NCBI GenBank assembly: GCA_003152875.1
Contig: PMBF01000076.1
Location: forward strand, 118,598 to 178,603
DNA: 60,006 bases
Reading direction: 5' to 3'
Source: Ignavibacteriota bacterium
GTDB taxonomy: Bacteria; Bacteroidota; Ignavibacteria; UBA10030; UBA6906
Position numbers and translations under genes: made by a program. Of this stretch, positions 12,461 to 36,563 are shown in pieces. Position 1 is the first letter of the stretch. Every line of letters starts with the position of its first letter. The notes under the pieces were generated by a model. That model saw only the letters and a list, made by a program, of their open reading frames with translations, was not told the origin of the DNA and searched no databases.

Positions 12461-12490
12461 AATATACGAAGAACAAGCCGGCAAAGTCAA
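12461..12490 (-). promoter_or_regulatory. candidate sigma70-type promoter of the nuo operon
   Basis: On the minus strand: TTGACT (12490-12485), 18-nt spacer, TATATT (12466-12461). It lies about 215 nt upstream of the nuoA ATG, which implies a long leader. Confidence 0.45.
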
Positions 12491-15795: not shown

Positions 15796-16416
15796 ATGAG
15801 CACATCCTGTCATTCCCGCCGCCGCTCCCTTCTATACCCAGGCTGCGCGTGCCGGCCGCTTCGGCCATGGGTCCTCTGCATCGTCCCTCTTCTCCTGTCC
15901 GGCTGCCTCACGGTGGAAAGCAAGGAGTACCACGTGACGTTGAAGGACGATGGTTCGGGTGAGGCCCGGATTGTCTTCCGCAATATCCAGTCGGAGAGTG
16001 ACGATACGACAAATACCACCGACGAGGATTTCCAGCAGCTGGTCGACACTTATCTTCTCGGGAACCGATTCGAAAAAGACAACCCGGGATTCCACAACGT
16101 GCGTAAGCGCCTATTCGAGGAGAACGGCAAGCTCTGCGGCGAGGTCTCCATCTCGTTTGACAGCCTGGCGACCCTCCGGCTGTACAGGTACGAAACGGAT
16201 GGACCCCTGATGTATTTTGTGGGGAGCCCCATCACGTCCGAAGTTCTCCAGGGGACCAACGGCGCCTACGGCCGCGACTGGATGCCGGTCGTCTTCTGGC
16301 CTCATGACACCCGCGAACTCTTCATCAAGACGAAGATCATTTCCCAGGCCTCATATCACCGGTCCCTTCTCCCGAACTTCAAGAAATGGGAGCAGGCCGG
16401 AAAGTCCCAGAAGTGA
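15796..16416 (+). CDS. hypothetical lipoprotein
   Basis: Lipobox LLLSGC after a hydrophobic stretch, but the n-region is unusually long if the ATG at 15796 is used. I recognise no family. It is transcribed divergently from the adenosyltransferase gene. Confidence 0.55.
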   Translation: MSTSCHSRRRSLLYPGCACRPLRPWVLCIVPLLLSGCLTVESKEYHVTLKDDGSGEARIVFRNIQSESDDTTNTTDEDFQQLVDTYLLGNRFEKDNPGFHNVRKRLFEENGKLCGEVSISFDSLATLRLYRYETDGPLMYFVGSPITSEVLQGTNGAYGRDWMPVVFWPHDTRELFIKTKIISQASYHRSLLPNFKKWEQAGKSQK

Positions 16417-16484: not shown

Positions 16485-16530
16485 AAAAACTGCAAAACTG
16501 TATCTTTGGCGGGCATACAGTGCAGTTTTT
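16485..16530 (+). terminator. rho-independent (bidirectional-looking) terminator
   Basis: AAAAACTGC..ACTGTAT, 11-nt loop, ATACAGT GCAGTTTTT. The stems are 9 + 7 bp with a 3-nt bulge, with an A-run before and a T-run after. It lies 69 nt after the lipoprotein stop. Confidence 0.65.
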
Positions 16531-16611: not shown

Positions 16612-17856
16612 ATGGAAGCATGGCGCAGGAACCTGTATGTCCTCTGGGGTACCCAGTTCCTCGCCATGGTGGGAATGAACCTCGTCGTCCCATTCCTCCC
16701 CTTCTTCATCCGCCAGCTCGGCGTCACTGACCCCGACGACCTCTCCCGCTGGAGCGGCGTGGTCTTCGCGGGACCGTTTTTCCTCTCCGTGATCGCCACT
16801 CCTTACTGGGGCAGCCTGGGCGACCGCTACGGCCGGAAGATCATGGTTGTCAGGGCGCTCTACGGCCTCGCCCTCTCCCAGATCCTCATGGGATTCTCCC
16901 AGAATGTCTACCAGCTGCTCGCTTTTCGGATCGTGCAAGGGGTGATCAGCGGCTTCATCGCCTCTGCCCTTGCGCTGGTCTCCACGAACACGCCCAAGCA
17001 GCACATCGGCTACGCCCTCGGGTTCATTCAGTCTGCATCGGCCGGCGGGATGGTGCTCGGACCGTTTGTGGGAGGGGTGCTTGCCGACCTGATCGGATAC
17101 CGCGAAATTTTCTTTCTCACGGCGGCGCTGTGCGCCATCGGTGGGGTCGTCGTCATTGTGTATGTCCGTGAGCAATTCACTCCCCCTCCCGGCGGGACGG
17201 CGTGGACCGTCCTGCAGAATTTCCGGCTCATGGCCTCCGACCGGAGGCTTCGGGTCGTCGCTCTGACGCTCATCGCATCCCAGATGTCGGTCCTGATGAT
17301 CGAACCGATCTTCGCCCTGTATATAGAAAGCTTTAAGACCGACTCGCGCTACATGTCGACCGTGGCAGGGAGCATCTTCTCCATTCTCGGCTTCTTCATG
17401 GTGATCTCCGCCCCCTGGTGGGGGCGGCGGAACGACAAACACGGCTACTCCCGCAACCTCGCCATCGCATTGGTCGTTGTCGGCGTGGCCTATGCCGGTC
17501 ATATCATCGTGCGCAGCCTGATCCAGCTTGCAGTCCTGCGGGCGTTCCTGGGATTCGCCCGGGGAGGAGTGCTTCCCAGCCTTTACGGATTGACGAACCT
17601 CTATGCCCCCCAGGACCGCCGGGGAGGGATGATGGCCGTCGCCTCCAGCATGACCATCCTCGGCAACATGGTGGGACCGGTCGCCGGCGGACTCATTGCG
17701 GGGCACTTCGGCATTATCGCCTCGTTCATCGCGACAAGCCTCCTCATGGTGGCAACGGGCCTGATGGTTTCGCGGAAACTTCGCGATGGCCCGCCCGGTG
17801 CCGGGGACGATCCGGGGCGTCTGCAAAGCGTGGAAGTTGCAGAGAGGAGTCCATAG
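16612..17856 (+). CDS. MFS transporter (drug:H+ antiporter-like)
   Basis: 414 aa, about 12 TM helices, with the MFS loop motif GSLGDRYGRKIMVV between TM2 and TM3. Confidence 0.85.
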   Translation: MEAWRRNLYVLWGTQFLAMVGMNLVVPFLPFFIRQLGVTDPDDLSRWSGVVFAGPFFLSVIATPYWGSLGDRYGRKIMVVRALYGLALSQILMGFSQNVYQLLAFRIVQGVISGFIASALALVSTNTPKQHIGYALGFIQSASAGGMVLGPFVGGVLADLIGYREIFFLTAALCAIGGVVVIVYVREQFTPPPGGTAWTVLQNFRLMASDRRLRVVALTLIASQMSVLMIEPIFALYIESFKTDSRYMSTVAGSIFSILGFFMVISAPWWGRRNDKHGYSRNLAIALVVVGVAYAGHIIVRSLIQLAVLRAFLGFARGGVLPSLYGLTNLYAPQDRRGGMMAVASSMTILGNMVGPVAGGLIAGHFGIIASFIATSLLMVATGLMVSRKLRDGPPGAGDDPGRLQSVEVAERSP

Positions 17857-26533: not shown

Positions 26534-27418
26534 TTAACCGGGAATCTGCTCCCCTGCATGATAGGAGCTTCGCACGAGCGGACCCGACTGAACAATCCTG
26601 AAGCCCATGGCAAGCCCGCGCTCACGGTAATCCGCAAACTCGTCGGGATGGACATACCGGTCCACCGGCAGGTGGTCCCTCGTCGGCTGGAGATACTGTC
26701 CGAGCGTGAGGATATCGCATCCCGCTCCCCGCAGGTCGTTCATCACCTCCAGTACTTCTCCGGAATGCTCCCCCAGCCCGAGCATCAAGCCGCTCTTCGT
26801 CGCCATTTCCTTTCGCTTCGCGCGTGCGATGAGTTCCAGCGTCCGCGGATATCTTGCCTGCGGACGGACGGCAGGATACAGCCTCGGTACGGTCTCGGTA
26901 TTGTGGTTCAGGATATCGGGCTTCGCCTCGACCACCACGTCCAGGGCCCACTCCACGCCGCGGAAATCGGGGATCAGCACCTCCACAGTCACCGACGGGT
27001 TCACGCGCCGGACCTGGCGGATGGTCTCTGCGAAGACTCCCGCTCCTCCGTCGGGGAGCTCATCCCGGTTGACGGACGTGATCACGGCATGCCGGATCCC
27101 CATGCTGCGCACGGCATCGGCAACGCGGAAAGGCTCCTCGAGGTCAAGACCTTCCGGGCGCCCGGTCTTTACGGCGCAGAAGCCGCACGATCGGGTGCAG
27201 ATATCCCCCAGGATCATGAATGTGGCGGTCCCGGCGTTCCAGCACTCGCTCATGTTCGGACACCGCGCTTCTTCACAGACCGTATGAAGGTGCTTGTGTT
27301 CCATCAAACCCCGGAGCTTCGAGAAATTCTCCCCCAGCGGCACCTTCACCTTCAGCCACGCGGGGCGCGGTGCATGCGACTGCTCCTCCACGGGAGTCTC
27401 CTGAATCACGAATTCCAT
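26534..27418 (-). CDS. lipA: lipoyl synthase
   Basis: 294 aa with the auxiliary cluster motif [12 protein letters not shown] and the radical-SAM motif CTRSCGFC. Confidence 0.93.
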
Positions 27419-27440
27419 ACGTCCTCACTCTGTTCGAAGC

Positions 27441-28904
27441 TTACAGGGCGCTCTCCGGGTCGAAGCTCTCCAGGATCTGGACGATCTCGGCGAGGAACTT
27501 CCCTCCCATGGCGCCGTCAATGATCCTGTGGTCGAACGACAGCGTGAAATACGCGAGCGACCTGATGGCAATGGCTTCGTCAATAACCGCAACACGGCGT
27601 GCGATGGCCCCTGTGCCCAGGATCGCCACCTGAGGCTGGTTGATGATGGGGGTCCCCATCATGGTGCCGAAGACGCCGTAGTTGGAGATCGTAAACGTCC
27701 CCCCCTGGATGTCGTCGGGTGTCAGCTTCTTGGCACGCGTCCGGACGGCAAGATCGTTGACGGCCCGGGCGTACCCCAGGAAGTTTTTTTCGTCCGCCCG
27801 CTTGATGACGGGCACAATCAGCCCGTTGTCGGCGGCAACGGCAATGCCCAGGTTGATGAAGCGCTTCCTGATGATACGGTCCCCCTCAACCGAACTGTTG
27901 AGCAGCGGGAATTTCTTGATGGCCCTGACCACGGCGTCGACGACGTACGGGGTGTAGGTGAGCCGAAACCCCTCCCGCTTCTCGAAGGCTTCCGCATGCC
28001 GCGACCTGTGCGTGACCACCGAGGTCATGTCCACCTCGTGGATTGCGGCCACGTGCGGCGAGGTCTGAACGCTCTGCACCATGTGCCGGGCCATGCGCTG
28101 GAGCACGTTGCTCATCTGGAGGACCTCGTGGCCGGGCGGCGGATATTTCGCGAGCAACGCCGCGTCATCCACAGGCCGGAGGCCCATGGGCACAGACGGC
28201 TCCGGGCCGGCAGGAGCGGTTCTCCCTTCCAGCCGAGGCAGTGCGCTGGACGCCCTCCGGGCGTCAACCCAGGCCGAGATGTCCTTCTTGGTTACCCTCC
28301 CCCCCTCGCCGCTGCCGTTGATCTGTTCGAGCTGCTCTATCGAAACTCCCTCGTTCCTCGCAATGCTCAGGACGAGCGGGGAATAAAACCGGTCGGGCTT
28401 GTGTTCCCTCTTTTCCGCTCCGGGAGCACCGGCAGCCGGCGCGGGGCCGGACCCGGCGGCGTGGGCCTGACCAGGCTGTCGTCCCGCTTTCGCGGGTTCT
28501 CCCTTCACATCCTCCACCTCCCTCGCCGGTCCAGCCGGTGCCCGTGCTCCTCCCGGGCTCTGCGCAGAATCCGGTGCATGCTCCTGCACCGCTCCACCCG
28601 AAGGCGCAGCGCCAGGTTCAGCAGCAACCGCCCGCTGCGGAACATCCTCAGCTACTCCGGCGGCATCGGTTTCCAGGTGAGCGATGACAGTCTGGACAGC
28701 CACGGTCTCGTTTTCCTGCACGGCAATGTCGGCAAGGATGCCCGAAGCAGGCGATGGAATCTCGGAGTCCACCTTGTCGGTGCTGATTTCAAGCAAGGTT
28801 TCGTCCTTCTGAACAACATCTCCGACTTTCTTGTGCCACTTGACCACTGTTCCCTCGGTGATGCTTTCGCCCATCTGAGGCATCACAACGTCAACTCTGG
28901 CCAT
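27441..28904 (-). CDS. dihydrolipoamide acyltransferase (E2) of a 2-oxoacid dehydrogenase complex
   Basis: One lipoyl domain (EISTDKV), a long Ala/Pro/Gly linker, a subunit-binding domain and a catalytic domain ending in SFDHRIIDGA. Confidence 0.9.
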   Translation of the reverse strand: MARVDVVMPQMGESITEGTVVKWHKKVGDVVQKDETLLEISTDKVDSEIPSPASGILADIAVQENETVAVQTVIAHLETDAAGVAEDVPQRAVAAEPGAAPSGGAVQEHAPDSAQSPGGARAPAGPAREVEDVKGEPAKAGRQPGQAHAAGSGPAPAAGAPGAEKREHKPDRFYSPLVLSIARNEGVSIEQLEQINGSGEGGRVTKKDISAWVDARRASSALPRLEGRTAPAGPEPSVPMGLRPVDDAALLAKYPPPGHEVLQMSNVLQRMARHMVQSVQTSPHVAAIHEVDMTSVVTHRSRHAEAFEKREGFRLTYTPYVVDAVVRAIKKFPLLNSSVEGDRIIRKRFINLGIAVAADNGLIVPVIKRADEKNFLGYARAVNDLAVRTRAKKLTPDDIQGGTFTISNYGVFGTMMGTPIINQPQVAILGTGAIARRVAVIDEAIAIRSLAYFTLSFDHRIIDGAMGGKFLAEIVQILESFDPESAL

Positions 28905-28934
28905 AGAGGACCCTTCCTGTCAAAGTGAACTTCC

Positions 28935-29912
28935 TCATGCCCTGCTCAGCCCGCGGATGGCTTCGACCACCCTGGAAAGGTTGGGCAGAAATGCCTCTTC
29001 GAGCGTCGGAGCGAAGGGGACCGGCGTGTCAAGCGATCCTATCCTCCGGATTGGGGCATCAAGGTATTGAAAAGCATGCTCCGTAATCAGCGCCGCGATC
29101 TCACCCCCGATGCCGCCTGTGAGTGTTGCCTCGTGGAGGATCAGCACCTTCCCGGTTTCCCGAACGCTGGAGAGGATCAGCTGGGTATCCAGGGGCGCCA
29201 ATGTCCTCAGATCCACCACCCGGACTTCTACCCCGTCTTCGCGGGAGAGGACCGCCGCCGCTTCGAGCGCCGTGTGAACGGTCGGGCCGTAGGTGAATAC
29301 CACCAGATCGTCGCCGGTTCTTCTGACCTCCCCCTTCCCGAGCGGGACAACAAAGTCGGCGTCAGGCACCTCCTCTTTGATCCGGCGGTAGAGGTATTTG
29401 TATTCCAGGTAGAGCACGGGATTGTCATCGCGGATCGCTGACTTCATGAGGCCCTTGGCATCGTAGGGAGTAGCAGGGGCTACGATTTTCAAGCCCGGGA
29501 CATTGAGGAACCACCCCTCAGGATTCGCCGAATGGTACGGCCCTCCGTGGATGTTGCCCCCGGCCGGAAGCCGTACAACCATCGGGACCGGTAGATGCCA
29601 TCGGTAATGAATCTTGGCCGAGTTGGTGACAAGTTGGTTGAAGGCACAACTGACAAAGTCGGCGAATTGCATCTCCACCACGGGCCGCATCCCGACAATC
29701 GCGGCCCCCGTGGCTGCGCCCACGATGGCGGCTTCCGACAACGGAGTATCGATGACTCGCTCTTCTCCAAAATGCTGAAGGAAGCCCCGCGTCACCTTGA
29801 ACGCGCCGCCATACTCGCCGATATCCTCCCCCAGAAGGAAGACGGCGGGATCGCGCTCCATCTCTTCCCACAACGCCCGGGAGATCGCCTCCAGATACGT
29901 CAGGACCGCCAT
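28935..29912 (-). CDS. 2-oxoacid dehydrogenase E1 component, beta subunit
   Basis: MAVLTYLEAISRALWEEMERDP..GEDIGEYGGAFKVTRG is the standard E1-beta N-terminus. The longer ORF start at 30053 adds 47 residues that do not look like E1-beta. Confidence 0.88.
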   Translation of the reverse strand: MAVLTYLEAISRALWEEMERDPAVFLLGEDIGEYGGAFKVTRGFLQHFGEERVIDTPLSEAAIVGAATGAAIVGMRPVVEMQFADFVSCAFNQLVTNSAKIHYRWHLPVPMVVRLPAGGNIHGGPYHSANPEGWFLNVPGLKIVAPATPYDAKGLMKSAIRDDNPVLYLEYKYLYRRIKEEVPDADFVVPLGKGEVRRTGDDLVVFTYGPTVHTALEAAAVLSREDGVEVRVVDLRTLAPLDTQLILSSVRETGKVLILHEATLTGGIGGEIAALITEHAFQYLDAPIRRIGSLDTPVPFAPTLEEAFLPNLSRVVEAIRGLSRA

Positions 29913-30086
29913 GGCTTCCTTCTCATATTCTGCTATGCGGCAACAATCCGGAATCGCCGGAATCCGCCGCGCATTGCCATATCCATGCAGGTCGAATCCC
30001 TCCCCCGGCTGCTCCATCCGCCACCCCGTTGAAAACGCTGCCCGGTCCTTCATCTTCTGCGAGATCAGCCGCTTCGAGCCGCCCGT

Positions 30087-31037
30087 TCATGCGTAGACCC
30101 CCAGGCCGGCGTCGCCGGGAGGAGGATAGGGATTCGCTTCGGCTTCGCCGACGGCAAGACGTATCGCCGACGCGATTTCCGCCTCCATTCCCGCCTTGCG
30201 CTCCGCCGTCAGGACACACTCGGCAAGGAGCATCCGCTCCAGCCGGTCGATCGGATCCTTTTTCCTCCACTCCTCCAGCAGGGCAGGGGGCACGTAGGCT
30301 GCGTCATCGGAAGCCGAATGTCCCTGCATCCGCATGGTCACCGATTCGATGAGCGAAGGCCCTCCGCCTCTGCGCGCCGATTCAACAGCCAGCCGGCACG
30401 CGTCCGCGACCGCCAGCACGTCCGTCCCGTCGATGGTCACGCCCGGAATACCGTATCCGGCGGCCCGGTCGGACAATCGTTTTGCCGCAAATTGCCTGCT
30501 GGCGGGGGTGGAGTAGGCGTACTGGTTGTTCTCAATGATCAGGACGAAAGGGAGCTTCAAGACTGCCGCCATGTTGAGTCCCTCGTGGAAATCTCCCACG
30601 TTTGATCCGCCGTCGCCGATAAAGCTTATCGCCACGGCGTCCTCCCTCCTGATTTTCGCCGCCAGAGCTGCTCCCACGGCAACCGGAATCATTGCCGCAA
30701 GATGGCTGACGTTCCCGTAGATGCGCAGCGCGGGGTCCGCATAGTGCCCCGTTCCGTCGCGTCCCCCAGTGAGGCTGTCGCGCCTTCCCAGCTGCTGCAG
30801 GAAGATATTCCTCAGTGTCTGCCCCTTGACCAGATGAGCTCCCAGATCGCGGTGCAGGGGGAACAGATAATCGCGCGGCTCCAGGACGCTGGCGCTCCCG
30901 ACAGCTGTCGCCTCGTTGCCGGTCCCGGTGTAGGCGCCGCCGAGGATCTTTCCCTGCCTGTACAGGCGAAGGATGGCAGTGTCACATTCCCGCGCCAGCT
31001 TCATGTAATAATACAGCTTCAGAGGTTCTGTTGTCAT
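30087..31037 (-). CDS. 2-oxoacid dehydrogenase E1 component, alpha subunit (TPP-binding)
   Basis: 316 aa with the TPP motif GDGGSNVGDFHEGLNMAAVLKLPFVLIIENN. Confidence 0.88.
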   Translation of the reverse strand: MTTEPLKLYYYMKLARECDTAILRLYRQGKILGGAYTGTGNEATAVGSASVLEPRDYLFPLHRDLGAHLVKGQTLRNIFLQQLGRRDSLTGGRDGTGHYADPALRIYGNVSHLAAMIPVAVGAALAAKIRREDAVAISFIGDGGSNVGDFHEGLNMAAVLKLPFVLIIENNQYAYSTPASRQFAAKRLSDRAAGYGIPGVTIDGTDVLAVADACRLAVESARRGGGPSLIESVTMRMQGHSASDDAAYVPPALLEEWRKKDPIDRLERMLLAECVLTAERKAGMEAEIASAIRLAVGEAEANPYPPPGDAGLGVYA

Positions 31038-31042
31038 GACTC

Positions 31043-33121
31043 TCAGTAGCGTGCAAGCTTTTCGAGAGCTGCCACAAGGTCGGACTCCTGGGGCAGCATC
31101 GCATTTTCAAGAAGCGGGCCGTACGGGACCGGTGTGTCTTTCGCGGCCAGCCGCATGACCGGCGCATCAAGCCATTCGAAAGCCTCGGCGGCAACAATCG
31201 CCGCTATCTCGGCACCGAAGCCCCCCGTCAGTGTGTCCTCATGGGCGATCAGCACCTTGCCGGTCTTCCTGACCGAGGAAATCACGCTCTCCTTGTCGAG
31301 AGGGTTCAGCGTGCGAAGATCGATGACTTCGATCGACACGCCAGCCGCTTCCTCAACACGCCGGGCCGCGTCGAGCGCGCGCTGAACAAGCATCCCCCAG
31401 CAAATCACCGAAATATCCTCCCCTTTTTTCCTGATACCCGCCAGACCGAAGGGGAGCAAAAAGTCCGGGCCCGGCTCAGGCCTTGAAGCAAACCCCTGCC
31501 TGTAGAGGCCCTTGTGTTCGCAGAAGAGCACGGGATCGGACTCCCGGCACGCCGTTTTCAGGAGGCCCTTGGCGTCCGCGGCGTTCGAGGGAAACACCAC
31601 ACGCAGTCCGGGGATATGCGTGAAAAACCCGTCGATCGACTGGCTGTGATACAACCCTCCATGGATGTACCCGCCCACGGCAACACGGATGACCATCGGA
31701 CAGGACCAATCCCCGGCGGAGCGAAAACGCAATGTCGCCACCTCGTCCCTGATCTGCATGAAGGCCGGCCAGATATAGTCGCCGAACTGGATTTCAACTA
31801 CCGGCTTGCAGTCGCCGCGCACCGCAAGCCCGAACGCGGTGCCCACGATGCTCGCCTCTGCAAGAGGTGAATTGAACACCCTGGCCTCGCCGAACCGGGC
31901 AGTCAGTCCCTTCGTGGCCGTGAACACACCCCCTTTATTCCCCGCGACATCCTCGCCGTAGATCAGCATCTTCGGGTTGCGCTCCATCTCCTCCGCGAGC
32001 GCATGGTTGATGGCGTCCACCATCACGACCGGCGGGCCGGCCGCCGGAGGATCACGCAGCGAATCTGCGGGCACCGCCGGGGTGCGGGCATAGAGATGAT
32101 CGAGCAGGACGGATGCGGGGGTCACCCGCTCCGCTTCCGCCGCGTTTGCCGCCCGTTCGATCTGTTCATGAATCTCCTTTCTGATCGCACCGATCTCGTC
32201 GCGGCTCAGACCCCCCTGGTCCAAGAGGAGATGTTCCATGCGGGGGACCGGGTCGCGCTTCAGGTCCTTCTCGAGATCCCCCGCATCCCGGTACTTCCGC
32301 TGGTCGTCGGAAGACGAATGCGCCAGGAGCCGCACCACATCTGCCTCGATCAGACTCGGACCTTCGCCGCGCCGGGCGAGGCCGACGGCTTCTGTTGCGG
32401 TGTCGAACATCGCCCCGAAATCGCAGCCGTCGACATGGAAGCGATGCAGTCCGGCGTATCCCTGGACCAGCCCATGGACGCTTTTCCCTGCAACCTGGTC
32501 TTCCACGGGGACGGAGATGGCGTACTTGTTGTTCTGGATCAGAAAAATTACGGGGAAGCGTTCCCTCGCCGCCCAGTTGATTGCTTCGTGGAACTCCCCT
32601 TCGCTCGTCGCTCCTTCGCCGGAGGAGACGTACACGACTTCATCCTTCCCTTCTTTCACTGCCCCCATGGCGGTCCCCACCGCCTGCAGGAACTGCGTCC
32701 CGGTGGGACTCGACTGGGCGATGATCCTCAACTTCTTGTGCCCGTAATGGAACGGCATGGAGAACCCGTTGCTGCTCGGCCCGCCCACACGATGCAGCGC
32801 TTCCAGCATGATCTCCTCCACCGTATAGCCGAACTGCAGCGAGAACGCGAGGTCACGGTAGTAGGGGTAGGCCCAGTCGGACCCCGGCTTCAAGGCGAGC
32901 GCAACGGCGGTCTGGGCTGCTTCGTGGCCGGAGACGCCGATATGGAAGAACACCTTGCCCTGCTTCAGAAGGGTGAGGATTTTGCCGTCGATGAACCGGG
33001 CTCTCACCATTGTCTTGTACGCGCAGAGGAGCTGCTCCTGCGTGATGGCCGCCTTCGGCGATGAGGCGCCGGTGGCCGATATCGATGGTTTGGCGGTCCT
33101 GGGTCTCACGGTAGTCGTCAT
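31043..33121 (-). CDS. fused E1 alpha-beta 2-oxoacid dehydrogenase component
   Basis: 692 aa. The N-terminal half is E1-alpha-like (SGEGATSEGEFHEAINWAARERFPVIFLIQNN) and the C-terminal half is E1-beta-like (MLIYGEDVAGNKGGVFTATKGL...). Its ATG overlaps the lipB stop (ATGA). Confidence 0.85.
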   Translation of the reverse strand: MTTTVRPRTAKPSISATGASSPKAAITQEQLLCAYKTMVRARFIDGKILTLLKQGKVFFHIGVSGHEAAQTAVALALKPGSDWAYPYYRDLAFSLQFGYTVEEIMLEALHRVGGPSSNGFSMPFHYGHKKLRIIAQSSPTGTQFLQAVGTAMGAVKEGKDEVVYVSSGEGATSEGEFHEAINWAARERFPVIFLIQNNKYAISVPVEDQVAGKSVHGLVQGYAGLHRFHVDGCDFGAMFDTATEAVGLARRGEGPSLIEADVVRLLAHSSSDDQRKYRDAGDLEKDLKRDPVPRMEHLLLDQGGLSRDEIGAIRKEIHEQIERAANAAEAERVTPASVLLDHLYARTPAVPADSLRDPPAAGPPVVMVDAINHALAEEMERNPKMLIYGEDVAGNKGGVFTATKGLTARFGEARVFNSPLAEASIVGTAFGLAVRGDCKPVVEIQFGDYIWPAFMQIRDEVATLRFRSAGDWSCPMVIRVAVGGYIHGGLYHSQSIDGFFTHIPGLRVVFPSNAADAKGLLKTACRESDPVLFCEHKGLYRQGFASRPEPGPDFLLPFGLAGIRKKGEDISVICWGMLVQRALDAARRVEEAAGVSIEVIDLRTLNPLDKESVISSVRKTGKVLIAHEDTLTGGFGAEIAAIVAAEAFEWLDAPVMRLAAKDTPVPYGPLLENAMLPQESDLVAALEKLARY

Positions 33122-33900
33122 GGGTTCCCGGTGCAGGTCAACGTATCACGTGGCTCGAAAAATGCGGCGGCGGCATCTCCCGCCCGGCCGGAAGTTGGGG
33201 CAAGCCCATGCAGGGATTCAAGGAATGCGCCGGCGCCGACCTCCTTGGCAGAGACCCTGAAAACCAGCGCAAACTCCTCAATGCAGGCTCCGGTCACTTC
33301 TTCCAGCGGCACGCGGCAGCCGAGGAGGTTTTCCATGGAGGTCACACTCTGTTCGAATATTCCGCAGGGGATGATGCGTCCGAAGGGCTGAAGGTCGGCG
33401 CAGACGTTCAGGGCGAATCCGTGCATGGTAATCCAACGGCTCGTGTGGATGCCGATTGCGCAGATCTTGTCGCCTCCCGCCCAGACCCCCGTATACGAAG
33501 GGTGCCGTTCGGCGCGGACGGAAAAGCGGCCGAGTACGCGGATGACGGTTTCTTCCAGATCCCGCAAATAGCGGTGAAGGTCGGGCTGAAAGCCGTGAAG
33601 GTCGAGGATGGGATACCCGACGAGCTGACCCGGACCGTGGTAGGTTACGTCGCCTCCCCGCTCGACGGAAACCAGGTCGATGCCCTGATCCAGCCTCTCA
33701 GCATCGCCGGCAAGGACATGATCAGGATTGCCGGAGCGGCCGATGGTGAACACCGGGTCATGTTCCGTGAGGAGCAAGACGTCGGGAATCGAGCCTGCGC
33801 TTCGCAGGGCGAATGCACGGCGCTGGACTTCCAGGCACCAGCGGTACTCAGTGCGTCCGAGGCGGACGGTGTGGAGTGTGCGATTTTCCTGTGAGCCCAT
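33118..33900 (-). CDS. lipB: lipoyl(octanoyl) transferase
   Basis: 260 aa with a LipB-like core (LLTEHDPVFTIGRSG, RGGDVTYHGPGQLVGYPI, KICAIGI). Confidence 0.9.
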   Translation of the reverse strand: MGSQENRTLHTVRLGRTEYRWCLEVQRRAFALRSAGSIPDVLLLTEHDPVFTIGRSGNPDHVLAGDAERLDQGIDLVSVERGGDVTYHGPGQLVGYPILDLHGFQPDLHRYLRDLEETVIRVLGRFSVRAERHPSYTGVWAGGDKICAIGIHTSRWITMHGFALNVCADLQPFGRIIPCGIFEQSVTSMENLLGCRVPLEEVTGACIEEFALVFRVSAKEVGAGAFLESLHGLAPTSGRAGDAAAAFFEPRDTLTCTGNP

Positions 33901-34111
33901 GCTGTAGAAGAACGGTCCTTCCCTCCGATGCTTTCCTTAAACCTGATCCCCCTGCCGGGTGTCGCGGAGGCATGCCCTGCCTCCCTCCCCACAAACAATC
34001 GTGACGCGGCTCCTTCCGCAGCCCCCCACCCCCACTCCCCTCGCCGCCTCATTCCGTCCTGCTCCTGGCCGGTCAAGCGGCCCAGGCCTCACACCCCCCT
34101 GGCAGGCCGGT

Positions 34112-35500
34112 CTAGATATTGATCGCCTCTCCCTTTGAGGCCGCGGCTGCCTCCATGACAGCCTCGCTCATTGTAGGATGGGCATGCACCGAGCGGAGAA
34201 TGCTTTCCGCCGTCGCCTCGTGGCGCTTGGCTATCAGGAGTTCCATGATCAGCTCGGTCGCCTCCGAACCCAGGATGTGCGCCCCAAGAAGCTCACCGTA
34301 TTGTGCGTCAAAGATAAGTTTCACCATTCCCTCGGTCTCTCCGGAGGCAGCGGCCTTTCCGAGAACCCTGAACGGGAACCGCCCGATCCTGATCTCCCGG
34401 CCGAGCGCTTTTGCCTTCTCTTCCGTGATGCCGATACTCGCGACCTGAGGCTGGCAGTAGGTGCACACGGGGATGGAGGTGTAATCCAACGGCTCGGGAT
34501 GCAGGCCGGCGAGCGCTTCCACACAATGGATTCCCTCCGCCGAGGCAACGTGGGCAAGCCAGGGAGGACCGATAACGTCGCCGATGGCATAGACACCCGG
34601 GATGTTTGTACGGAAGTCCGGGTCCACCTTGATCTGGCCCCCGTCCACTGTCACTCCGAGCTCTTCGAGTCCGATGTTCTCGACATTGCCCTGGACCCCG
34701 ACCGCCATGAGTGCGACATCCGCCGTTACTTCTTTCGCGACCCCGTCCGCTCCAGTCAGTGACAGCGTAACTCCAGCAGGTCCCGGCTTGATTTTTTCCA
34801 CCCGGGTCCCGGTGAGAATCTCGATCCCCTGCTTCCGCAGAGTCCGCTCCAGTTCCTTTGATATCTCGCGGTCCTCCACCGGGAGGATCCCCGGCATCAT
34901 CTCCACGACGGTCACCTTCGTCCCGAGCGCGTTGTAGAAATAGGCGAACTCGATCCCAATTGCCCCCGCTCCGATGATAGCCATGGAGCCGGGTTGCTCG
35001 GAGAGCGACATCGCTTCCGAGCTGCTGATGATCTTTTTGCGGTCGATCGAGGTGCCTGGGAGGGTGCGGGGCCGGGCGCCGGTCGCCAGGATGATGTGTT
35101 TTGCCGAAATGGTCTGCTTCCCTTCCGAATTCACTTCAACACGTCCGTCACCCGCCAGCCGCGCGTACCCTGGAAACACGGCAATCTTGTTCTTCTTCAT
35201 GAGGAATTCGACACCCTTCGAAACTCTCTCGGCCACCTTCCTGCTGCGCTGAATGATCTTGGGAAACTCAAAGCGCAGGTTGTCGAAGGAGATGCCCCAT
35301 TCGCCGGCCCGGCGAATGGTCTGGAGGAGCTCGGCGTTTTTCAGAAGGGCCTTCGTGGGAATGCACCCCCAGTTCAGGCAGATGCCGCCGAGACGGTCGC
35401 GCTCAACGATGGCAGCCGAAAGCCCGAGTTGTGCAGCTCTGATTGCGGCGGTATACCCCCCCGGGCCGCTGCCGATGACCAGCACATCATATGCATTCAT
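34112..35500 (-). CDS. lpdA: dihydrolipoyl dehydrogenase (E3)
   Basis: FAD motif VIGSGPGGY, redox-active disulfide GGICLNWGCIPTK and C-terminal HAHPTMSE. Start taken at ATG 35500, which is preceded by GAGGAG. The ORF-track start at 35518 is a TTG inside the terminator T-tract. Confidence 0.93.
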   Translation of the reverse strand: MNAYDVLVIGSGPGGYTAAIRAAQLGLSAAIVERDRLGGICLNWGCIPTKALLKNAELLQTIRRAGEWGISFDNLRFEFPKIIQRSRKVAERVSKGVEFLMKKNKIAVFPGYARLAGDGRVEVNSEGKQTISAKHIILATGARPRTLPGTSIDRKKIISSSEAMSLSEQPGSMAIIGAGAIGIEFAYFYNALGTKVTVVEMMPGILPVEDREISKELERTLRKQGIEILTGTRVEKIKPGPAGVTLSLTGADGVAKEVTADVALMAVGVQGNVENIGLEELGVTVDGGQIKVDPDFRTNIPGVYAIGDVIGPPWLAHVASAEGIHCVEALAGLHPEPLDYTSIPVCTYCQPQVASIGITEEKAKALGREIRIGRFPFRVLGKAAASGETEGMVKLIFDAQYGELLGAHILGSEATELIMELLIAKRHEATAESILRSVHAHPTMSEAVMEAAAASKGEAINI

Positions 35501-35516
35501 GGACAGCTCCTCGTGC

Positions 35517-35548
35517 AAAAAAAAGGGCGATGGTCAATCCCTTCGCCC
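35517..35548 (-). terminator. intrinsic terminator inside the lpdA leader
   Basis: On the minus strand: GGGCGA (35548-35543), 12-nt loop with further internal pairing, TCGCCC (35530-35525), then T8 (35524-35517). The RBS and ATG of lpdA follow immediately. Confidence 0.6.
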
Positions 35549-35664
35549 GGCCGTCAGCTGATCGTCCCTCCACTGTAAAACACCGGCGTTGACCCGGCGG
35601 TTTCCTCACAATGAGAGTCCTGCGGGCACAATTCAGGGGGAACCTCCTGTGTCGGGTCGTGTCG

Positions 35665-35693
35665 AATATAGAAACGCGCCCCCAGAAAGTCAA
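35665..35693 (-). promoter_or_regulatory. candidate sigma70-type promoter driving the lpdA leader
   Basis: On the minus strand: TTGACT (35693-35688), 17-nt spacer, TATATT (35670-35665). These are the same hexamers as the candidate nuo promoter. Confidence 0.5.
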
Positions 35694-35965
35694 AATCACC
35701 GTCATACACCGAGGCCCCCCATCCCGGGCTTCACTTCGCGGGAGTCCACAACCCGATGGCAGCATGGCCCAAGCGCAACACACTTCGCGGGAAAGACCAC
35801 CGGAGGACCACACCCTGAGGATCATGCCCCTCGCGGACCCCTCCGGGCGGACCTCCGGAATTGACCATTCCTGAAAGGCCGCACCTGTGCCATGGCAGAG
35901 ATTTCCCGTTTTCCTGGACTGCCCCGGGGCTCGAACCGCGAGGGTGCCAGCCTGATTCGAGGCGA

Positions 35966-36027
35966 GGCAGCTTCTCGCCCCTATGGTTCCCCGCGCGGTT
36001 TGGCTCCGGGGAGCTGCCACCTTTTTT
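35966..36027 (+). terminator. orphan plus-strand stem-loop plus T6 (no annotated upstream gene)
   Basis: GGCAGCT (35966-35972) pairs with AGCTGCC (36012-36018), and the helix can be extended by about 4 more pairs. It is followed by ACC and T6 (36022-36027) and lies just upstream of the smpB promoter. Confidence 0.4.
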
Positions 36028-36048
36028 CCTGGAGAGCCGCCACCTGCA

Positions 36049-36077
36049 TTGATTTTCCCTGTGATTTTCGGTATACT
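36049..36077 (+). promoter_or_regulatory. candidate sigma70-type promoter of smpB-tyrS
   Basis: TTGATT (36049-36054), 17-nt spacer, TATACT (36072-36077). It lies 21 nt upstream of the smpB ATG. Confidence 0.5.
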
Positions 36078-36098
36078 AGTGCGAATTTTTTCCAGACG

Positions 36099-36563
36099 AT
36101 GGCATCTTCGGAGGAGACGACCGGCAGGGTCATTGCGACCAATCGAAAAGCGCGGCATGAGTATTTCGTGCTCGATACGGTTGAAGCCGGCCTTGTGCTC
36201 ACAGGGACCGAGATCAAATCGATCCGCCAGGGAAATGTCAACCTGACGGATGCGTATGCGGCCCTGAAAAACGGAGAAGCCTGGCTGCTGGGCATGCACG
36301 TGAGTCCGTACGAACATGGCAGCTATGCCAATGTCGATCCGCGCCGGGAACGGAAGCTCCTGCTGCACAAGCGGGAAATCAGAAAGCTGGCAAGCCGGCT
36401 CGGCGAGACCGGAGTCACGCTGATCCCCCTTCAAATCCATTTCAGCAAACGCGTCGCAAAGCTTCTCCTTGGCATATGCCGGGGAAAGCGGGCGTACGAC
36501 AAGCGCGAGGATATCGCGAAGCGTGAGGCTGAACGCGACATCCGCCGCCATTACGCGAGGTGA
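36099..36563 (+). CDS. smpB: SsrA-binding protein
   Basis: 154 aa with IATNRKARHEYF, GTEIKSIR and KLLLHKREI. Start at the ATG at 36099; the ORF track extends 69 codons further upstream through sequence that does not look like protein. Confidence 0.93.
   Translation: MASSEETTGRVIATNRKARHEYFVLDTVEAGLVLTGTEIKSIRQGNVNLTDAYAALKNGEAWLLGMHVSPYEHGSYANVDPRRERKLLLHKREIRKLASRLGETGVTLIPLQIHFSKRVAKLLLGICRGKRAYDKREDIAKREAERDIRRHYAR

Follow-up and report, generated by a model that had tools for sequence, protein, structure and literature searches.

A conserved leader terminator ahead of a combined 2-oxoacid dehydrogenase/lipoylation operon in an uncultured FCB-group lineage

Control of transcription at an intrinsic terminator in a 5' leader is a textbook mechanism, and Term-seq studies commonly turn up leader terminators for which no sensor is recognised. 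In some systems antitermination at such terminators depends on proteins, as in BglG/LicT-RAT, ANTAR, PyrR and TRAP. In Bacillus subtilis pyrG the leader is short and has no aptamer, and a pyrimidine-rich 5' arm is titrated by G residues that are added reiteratively at the transcript start. The leader attenuators known from Term-seq and PASIFIC-type predictions (PMC5314783) resemble the locus described here in having a promoter, an untranslated leader and a hairpin with a U-tract before the first ribosome-binding site (RBS), with no internal promoter, so that read-through is required. However, the typical regulated cases among them have a detectable alternative antiterminator or a known aptamer, whereas here we found none above chance and the upstream leader is not conserved.

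Two orphan riboswitch candidates, aceE and aceE-II, have been described upstream of PDH operons that include lpdA; they are conserved, covarying multi-stem structures found in Proteobacteria upstream of aceE (PMC11109978). The likeness to our locus is that of a cis element preceding a 2-oxoacid dehydrogenase operon with lpdA. However, the Rfam 15 models give no match here, and only a terminator structure is conserved; the elements are unrelated. The suggestion in a first-pass annotation of this DNA, that a sensing element before an E3-containing 2-oxoacid dehydrogenase operon would be unprecedented, was nevertheless overstated, given that aceE and aceE-II precede such operons (PMC11109978).

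With the protein-dependent systems the locus shares a bare leader terminator, at which read-through could depend on an RNA-binding protein acting in trans, with the invariant 5' arm of the hairpin, GAAGGGAA, as a possible recognition element. It differs from the RAT- and ANTAR-type systems in that it has no RAT-like, ANTAR-like or repeat motif, in that the sequence before the hairpin shrinks to as little as 22 nt in relatives, and in that neither the operon nor its neighbourhood includes a candidate regulator gene. The likeness to pyrG lies in the very short leaders of two related clusters (L174 and L182) and in terminator arms that are strongly purine- or pyrimidine-rich. However, the 5' arm is purine-rich here and the inferred start has no G-run; a by-eye comparison around this start suggested no more than a short CACTTT-like resemblance shared by four relatives. 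Furthermore, a nucleotide-sensing logic makes no sense for lpdA. What is new in the present locus is thus modest, namely a conserved leader terminator before a combined 2-oxoacid dehydrogenase/lipoylation operon in an uncultured FCB clade.

Anatomy of the lpdA leader and operon

The window, by which we mean the whole stretch of 60,006 nucleotides that was analysed (G+C content 58.7%), is placed by its LpdA homologues in an uncultured FCB-group lineage (Bacteroidota/Ignavibacteriota-like). The following features were delineated in it:

36049-36077, plus strand: divergent smpB promoter, TTGATT-17-TATACT (promoter scan; kept in relatives)
about 36099, plus strand: smpB start (called as 154 aa in the strain loci)
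35665-35693, minus strand: sigma-70-type promoter of the lpdA operon, with -35 TTGACT (35693-35688), a 17-nt spacer and -10 TATATT (35670-35665)
35501-35658, minus strand: 5' leader of about 158 nt, its start near 35658 inferred from the -10 position (about 7 nt past the -10)
35606-35648, minus strand: AGGAGG (35648-35643) and a 7-codon GTG mini-ORF (35629-35606), with an SD-to-GTG spacing of 13 nt
35577-35604, minus strand: local hairpin GAAAC-C-GCCGG / loop GTCAACG / CCGGT-GTTTT, -10.8 kcal/mol
35517-35548, minus strand: intrinsic terminator, GGGCGA (35548-35543) paired with TCGCCC (35530-35525), inner GG/CC pairs, and T8 (35524-35517)
35498-35512, minus strand: Shine-Dalgarno sequence (SD) GAGGAG (35512-35507), a 6-nt spacer and the lpdA ATG (35500-35498), the start codon being confirmed by N-terminal alignment with relatives
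26534-35500, minus strand: leader-controlled operon of seven genes (Pfam matches; synteny in relatives)
35500-34112, minus strand: lpdA, dihydrolipoyl dehydrogenase (Pyr_redox_2, 1.5e-72; Pyr_redox_dim, 7.8e-35)
33900-33118, minus strand: LipB/LplA-type lipoate ligase (Pfam)
33121-31043, minus strand: fused E1 alpha-beta (Pfam)
31037-30087, minus strand: E1 alpha (Pfam)
30053-28935, minus strand: E1 beta (Pfam)
28904-27441, minus strand: E2 (Pfam)
27418-26534, minus strand: lipoyl synthase lipA (Pfam)

A minus-strand reading confirmed the promoter, terminator, T8, SD and ATG where the first-pass annotation had placed them. The promoter is near-consensus and conserved in the clade beyond chance: TTGACT-17-TATATT scores 10/12 in the promoter scan and is identical across 12 related clusters with LpdA identities of about 70-75%. 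Its extended -35, TTGACTTTC, is typical of the clade, and the recurrence of the form TTGAyTTTC in the smpB promoter and at 12490(-) suggests a clade habit rather than an operon-specific site. In this FCB-group lineage the sigma-70-type promoters display the extended -35 TTGAyTTTC together with a -10 of the form TATAyT (35693(-), 36049(+) and 12490(-) in the window; loci L001-L003, L081 and L167-L186), and clear SD sequences of the form GAGGAA/GAGGAG are likewise seen. This is unlike the situation in Bacteroides, which has -33/-7 promoters and SD-poor leaders.

Upstream of the leader, smpB and tyrS lie on the plus strand, placing the leader within a divergent intergenic region. No same-strand gene is present upstream of the lpdA promoter, and the terminator would thus act solely on transcripts from this promoter. 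A unique spacer of 346 bp (35700-36045) keeps the lpdA promoter apart from the divergent smpB promoter and is missing in relatives outside the species, in which the intergenic region is about 200 bp. The spacer contains long imperfect hairpins at 35799-35859 (-) and 35914-36019 (+). We considered it as an ncRNA or a repeat and rejected both, given that it has no copy elsewhere in the window, that its divergence among strains is about neutral and that its fold z-score is -0.96; it may be what is left of an insertion. Searches with ARAGORN and Rfam recovered no tmRNA (ssrA) beside smpB (35892-36563 (+)), and no tmRNA or tRNA across the 60 kb.

The terminator hairpin has a folding energy of -14 to -15.4 kcal/mol and a closing-pair probability of 0.996 in the whole-leader ensemble. 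It combines the two typical features of intrinsic terminators, a stable G+C-rich stem and a U-tract directly 3' of it, and besides its T8 no run of eight or more T occurs on either strand across the 60 kb. When the whole window was scanned, the same type of hairpin and T-run was detected at genuine gene ends (1260+, 22199-, 16489-/16526+ and 39502-). The leader terminator is among the strongest in the window, and is the only one there located in a 5' leader. The element at 16489(-)/16526(+) is a bidirectional hairpin terminator flanked by T/A-runs, which lies between the plus-strand genes 15796-16416 and 16612-17856.

Just 4 nt (GCAC) separate T8 from the SD, and the T-tract ends 16 nt from the lpdA ATG, a gap into which a second promoter cannot fit. 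Thus, a polymerase starting at the operon promoter has to pass the terminator before it reaches the first start codon, and there is neither a co-directional gene upstream nor room for another promoter. This bears out the earlier proposal that lpdA is transcribed only by read-through of the terminator, and as lpdA transcription requires such read-through the element is an attenuator in the broad sense.

The operon downstream is tightly packed and unites E3, two E1 sets (one a fused alpha-beta, the other separate alpha and beta), one E2 and both lipoylation enzymes (the LipB/LplA-type ligase and LipA), and is followed after lipA by rplM-rpsI on the same strand. The gap between lpdA and the ligase gene (33901-34111 (-)) is 211 nt long, purine-rich and G-rich, the equivalent gaps in relatives being 0-50 nt; no hairpin with a T-run and no promoter-like site is visible in it. 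Pfam annotation of the genes within or beside the operon pointed to no candidate regulator.

The terminator module among relatives

The best LpdA matches outside the species are about 68-75% identical. In genome and metagenome scans with LpdA the closest relatives were 68-73% identical, and no DNA similarity to the leader was found in them. The set used for comparison comprised the clusters L001, L002, L081 and L089 and the contigs of eight further protein clusters from the 70-75% tier. The gene order PvlArgDC-tyrS-smpB, followed by the divergent lpdA-ligase-E1, is kept in most relatives. Over the whole intergenic region the window is matched at about 98% identity by six contigs of its own species (L161-L166). 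The few substitutions in them avoid the terminator stem, T8 and SD. At 4-fold sites, however, these contigs have diverged by just about 2-3%, too little to reveal a signal of selection or covariation.

In seven of the clusters (L002, L081, L089, L174, L178, L181 and L182) we detected a module of the form GAAGGGAA-loop-TTCCCTTTTTTGTTG between the conserved promoter and the lpdA RBS, and these clusters share the promoter-terminator-RBS layout of the window. The module itself is nearly invariant in its layout, with (G)AAGGGAA, a variable loop of 4-8 nt, and TTCCCTT TTTT GTTG. A covariance model trained on six of the clusters, L081 being left out, recovered this seventh cluster at 26.8 bits. Otherwise the model matched only ordinary AT-rich terminators in unrelated flavobacterial loci among the 1.3 Mb searched. 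The hairpin of the window is a diverged variant of this module with a shifted register, in which CGAAGGGA...CCCTTTTTTTTG is kept and the main pairing is now GGGCGA/TCGCCC; its strain-mates L161 and L164 match the model weakly, at 16 bits. In the stem of the module five of the seven pairs never vary, and a single compensatory change, A-U to G-C, is seen in L178. With so many invariant pairs covariation neither proves nor disproves the structure, and it is possible, judging from the sequences, that a constraint other than structure acts on the stem.

A further reading is an operator in the DNA. The half-sites are invariant and the 6-nt centre between them varies freely, a pattern typical of protein operators, and the GGG-CCC spacing is 10 nt in six of the seven clusters. 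A dimeric repressor could hence bind the palindrome AAGGGAA-N6-TTCCCTT of the relatives and form a roadblock, the RNA hairpin being incidental. However, the conserved T6-7 and GTTG flank is asymmetric, which fits a terminator and not a palindromic operator, and the module sits anywhere from about +30 to +190 with respect to the promoter. Furthermore, the spacing in L081 is 9 nt, and no second copy occurs beyond chance in the window or in any of the loci (3 found against 2.5 expected). The window itself keeps the hairpin and T8 yet is without the palindrome, AGGGAA-N6-TTCCCT being unmatched there within 2 mismatches. We therefore hold an operator to be very improbable and read the module as a terminator.

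In L171, L179, L186 and L167/L001 the module is missing or decayed, and the terminator is hence dispensable in parts of the clade; in L167 the hairpin is kept and the T-run is lost. That a hairpin can persist without its T-run, and that several relatives manage without the module, would agree with a non-terminating role in vivo, in which the 5'-proximal stem-loop stabilises the full-length mRNA and the U-rich tract just ahead of the SD serves as a translation enhancer or a site for protein S1. In the same vein, only 4-9 nt lie between the U-tract and the SD that follows it in the window, L174, L178, L081 and L182. Such a role is nonetheless unlikely, given that the module lies 50-230 nt upstream of the SD in L002, L181 and L089, and that a hairpin with T6-8 is indistinguishable from the gene-end terminators of this genome. 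Moreover, about 110 nt of RNA precede the hairpin in the window, counting from the inferred transcript start, and the hairpin is hence not a 5'-terminal stabiliser.

Two further peculiarities were noted in the region between the terminator and lpdA of individual relatives. Right after the terminator module a small UUCC...GGAA hairpin is seen in L174 (2480-2503), L178 (2527-2550) and L081 (1063-1086), which has no clear equivalent in the window; it may sequester the lpdA SD, which hints at an added translational layer in several relatives. In the metagenomic relative L089 the leader terminator and the lpdA start codon are set apart by an insert of about 200 nt (about 1680-1860), in which TCGTAGA motifs recur.

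Ahead of the hairpin the picture is very different. When the leaders of 13 clusters were compared all-against-all there was no significant match except the terminator module, and the length of the sequence preceding the hairpin ranges from 22 nt in L174 and 29 nt in L182 through 110 nt in the window to 185 nt in L081. Conservation of the lpdA upstream regions thus holds for the promoter and the terminator but not for the remaining leader, which is unalignable between clusters.

This distribution also bears on the notion that the locus is a stand-alone gene for a small RNA, the product of about 140 nt acting in trans and lpdA expression being a by-product of read-through. The region is a complete promoter-to-terminator unit without an ORF, and premature termination in 5' UTRs is a familiar source of small RNAs, which would provide a precedent. 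However, it is the terminator alone that is conserved between clusters, the RNA of L174 and L182 would be just about 50-60 nt long with no conserved single-stranded seed, and the unit is always tied to lpdA. On these grounds a dedicated small RNA gene appears quite improbable.

Possible determinants of read-through in the leader

In the window the sequence preceding the terminator hairpin, about 110 nt with three local hairpins, is long enough to house a ligand aptamer. The first-pass annotation had accordingly presented the leader as a candidate riboswitch, in which an antiterminator (35595-35583 with 35550-35532) and the terminator would be mutually exclusive alternatives, and orphan riboswitch candidates are indeed known upstream of PDH operons. 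The complementarity is present, with GGGTCAACGCCGG (35595-35583, hereafter segment A) able to form 6+6 bp, interrupted by a bulge and an internal loop, with the 5' arm and loop of the terminator at CCGGGCG...TTGACC (35550-35532). However, a fold forced to contain this antiterminator has an energy of -34.3 as against -50.8 kcal/mol for the minimum free energy (MFE) structure, a cost of 16.5 kcal/mol, and within the ensemble it has a probability of about 3e-11. Segment A is sequestered in its own hairpin (35604-35577) both in the MFE structure and in the fold of the nascent RNA, where it is already locked before the 3' arm of the terminator has been made.

The complementarity also proved to be at chance level. 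The best duplex of the upstream leader with the terminator 5' arm in the window scores -16.2, against -16.2 +/- 2.5 in dinucleotide shuffles, and no antiterminator beyond chance was found in any of seven leaders (the window and six relatives), the shuffle fractions being 0.19-0.81. Among the strain-mates, a C to G substitution of segment A in L164 breaks one antiterminator pair and is uncompensated. Similarly, the fold of the whole leader is no better than that of its shuffles (z = -0.73). The mutually exclusive foldings therefore have to be given up.

Comparison with relatives yielded no conserved aptamer-like element either, the terminator alone being shared across clusters. L171 is the only relative with leader homology to the window, and this is partial (GAAACC...CCGGTGTTTTA...GCTGAC...GACGAGGAGC); the L171 leader is, however, without a terminator. 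Conversely, L174 and L182 carry the same terminator with only 22-29 nt ahead of it. The earlier observation that the leader matches no known riboswitch was upheld: Rfam returned no family in the window at gathering thresholds, none at permissive E-values (E <= 10) in 35400-35950 and 35650-36150, and none in the loci of 12 relatives or the long L081 leader, the permissive matches being chance noise from miRNA, vault and lncRNA models only. Taken with the energetics, these observations leave a riboswitch or other cis switch very unlikely here.

A further element of the leader, AGGAGG followed by the 7-codon GTG mini-ORF, is present as had been reported, but the two are 13 nt apart and not conserved, and the pair is probably not functional. 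No conserved leader ORF or peptide was found among the leaders of the relatives, and L081, L178 and L174 are without any candidate ORF. We accordingly rejected ribosome-mediated attenuation by a leader peptide, given the 13-nt SD spacing, the lack of conservation of the peptides, and the end of the mini-ORF falling 58 nt short of the terminator hairpin.

We favor the reading, to which we assign a probability of roughly 0.6, that the region is an intrinsic-terminator attenuator in the leader of a 2-oxoacid dehydrogenase/lipoylation operon, with read-through that is either constitutive or controlled in trans. The analysis shows the anatomy, its conservation and the absence of a cis switch, whereas we infer termination in vivo and the nature of any trans input. 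Transcription from the strong promoter would mostly stop at T8, giving a short RNA of about 140 nt, and the operon would be expressed only by those polymerases that read through the terminator. The leader ahead of the hairpin is variable in length (22-185 nt) and lacks a conserved aptamer, antiterminator or leader peptide, suggesting that read-through is not set by a metabolite sensor in cis. A fixed share of polymerases could then leak past the hairpin, tuning the output of a very strong promoter, or the hairpin could be the target of a control in trans, exerted by an RNA-binding antiterminator protein, a small RNA or general elongation factors.

With regard to the latter option, the stem sequence is invariant around a freely varying loop, which is unusual for a purely structural terminator, and GAAGGGA is retained in the window, though it is not needed for the main stem there. 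Together these features hint at sequence-specific recognition. It is tentatively conceivable, though doubtful, that the invariant stem GAAGGGAA / UUCCCUU (with CGAAGGGA kept in the window) is the recognition element of an undiscovered trans antiterminator, either an RNA-binding protein or a small RNA, which would couple the operon to a metabolic signal such as redox or lipoylation status.

If read-through is constitutive, the element would be an ordinary terminator that tunes expression. If the terminator works as predicted, the three catalytic components and the lipoylating enzymes would be gated together at a single hairpin, 4 nt upstream of the RBS, giving a compact case of attenuation that governs a whole operon in an uncultured FCB lineage, and the invariant stem would offer a defined bait for a trans factor. 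Should a trans antiterminator indeed exist, it would represent a new attenuation system for central carbon metabolism, in a group of phyla in which leader-based control is almost unexplored.
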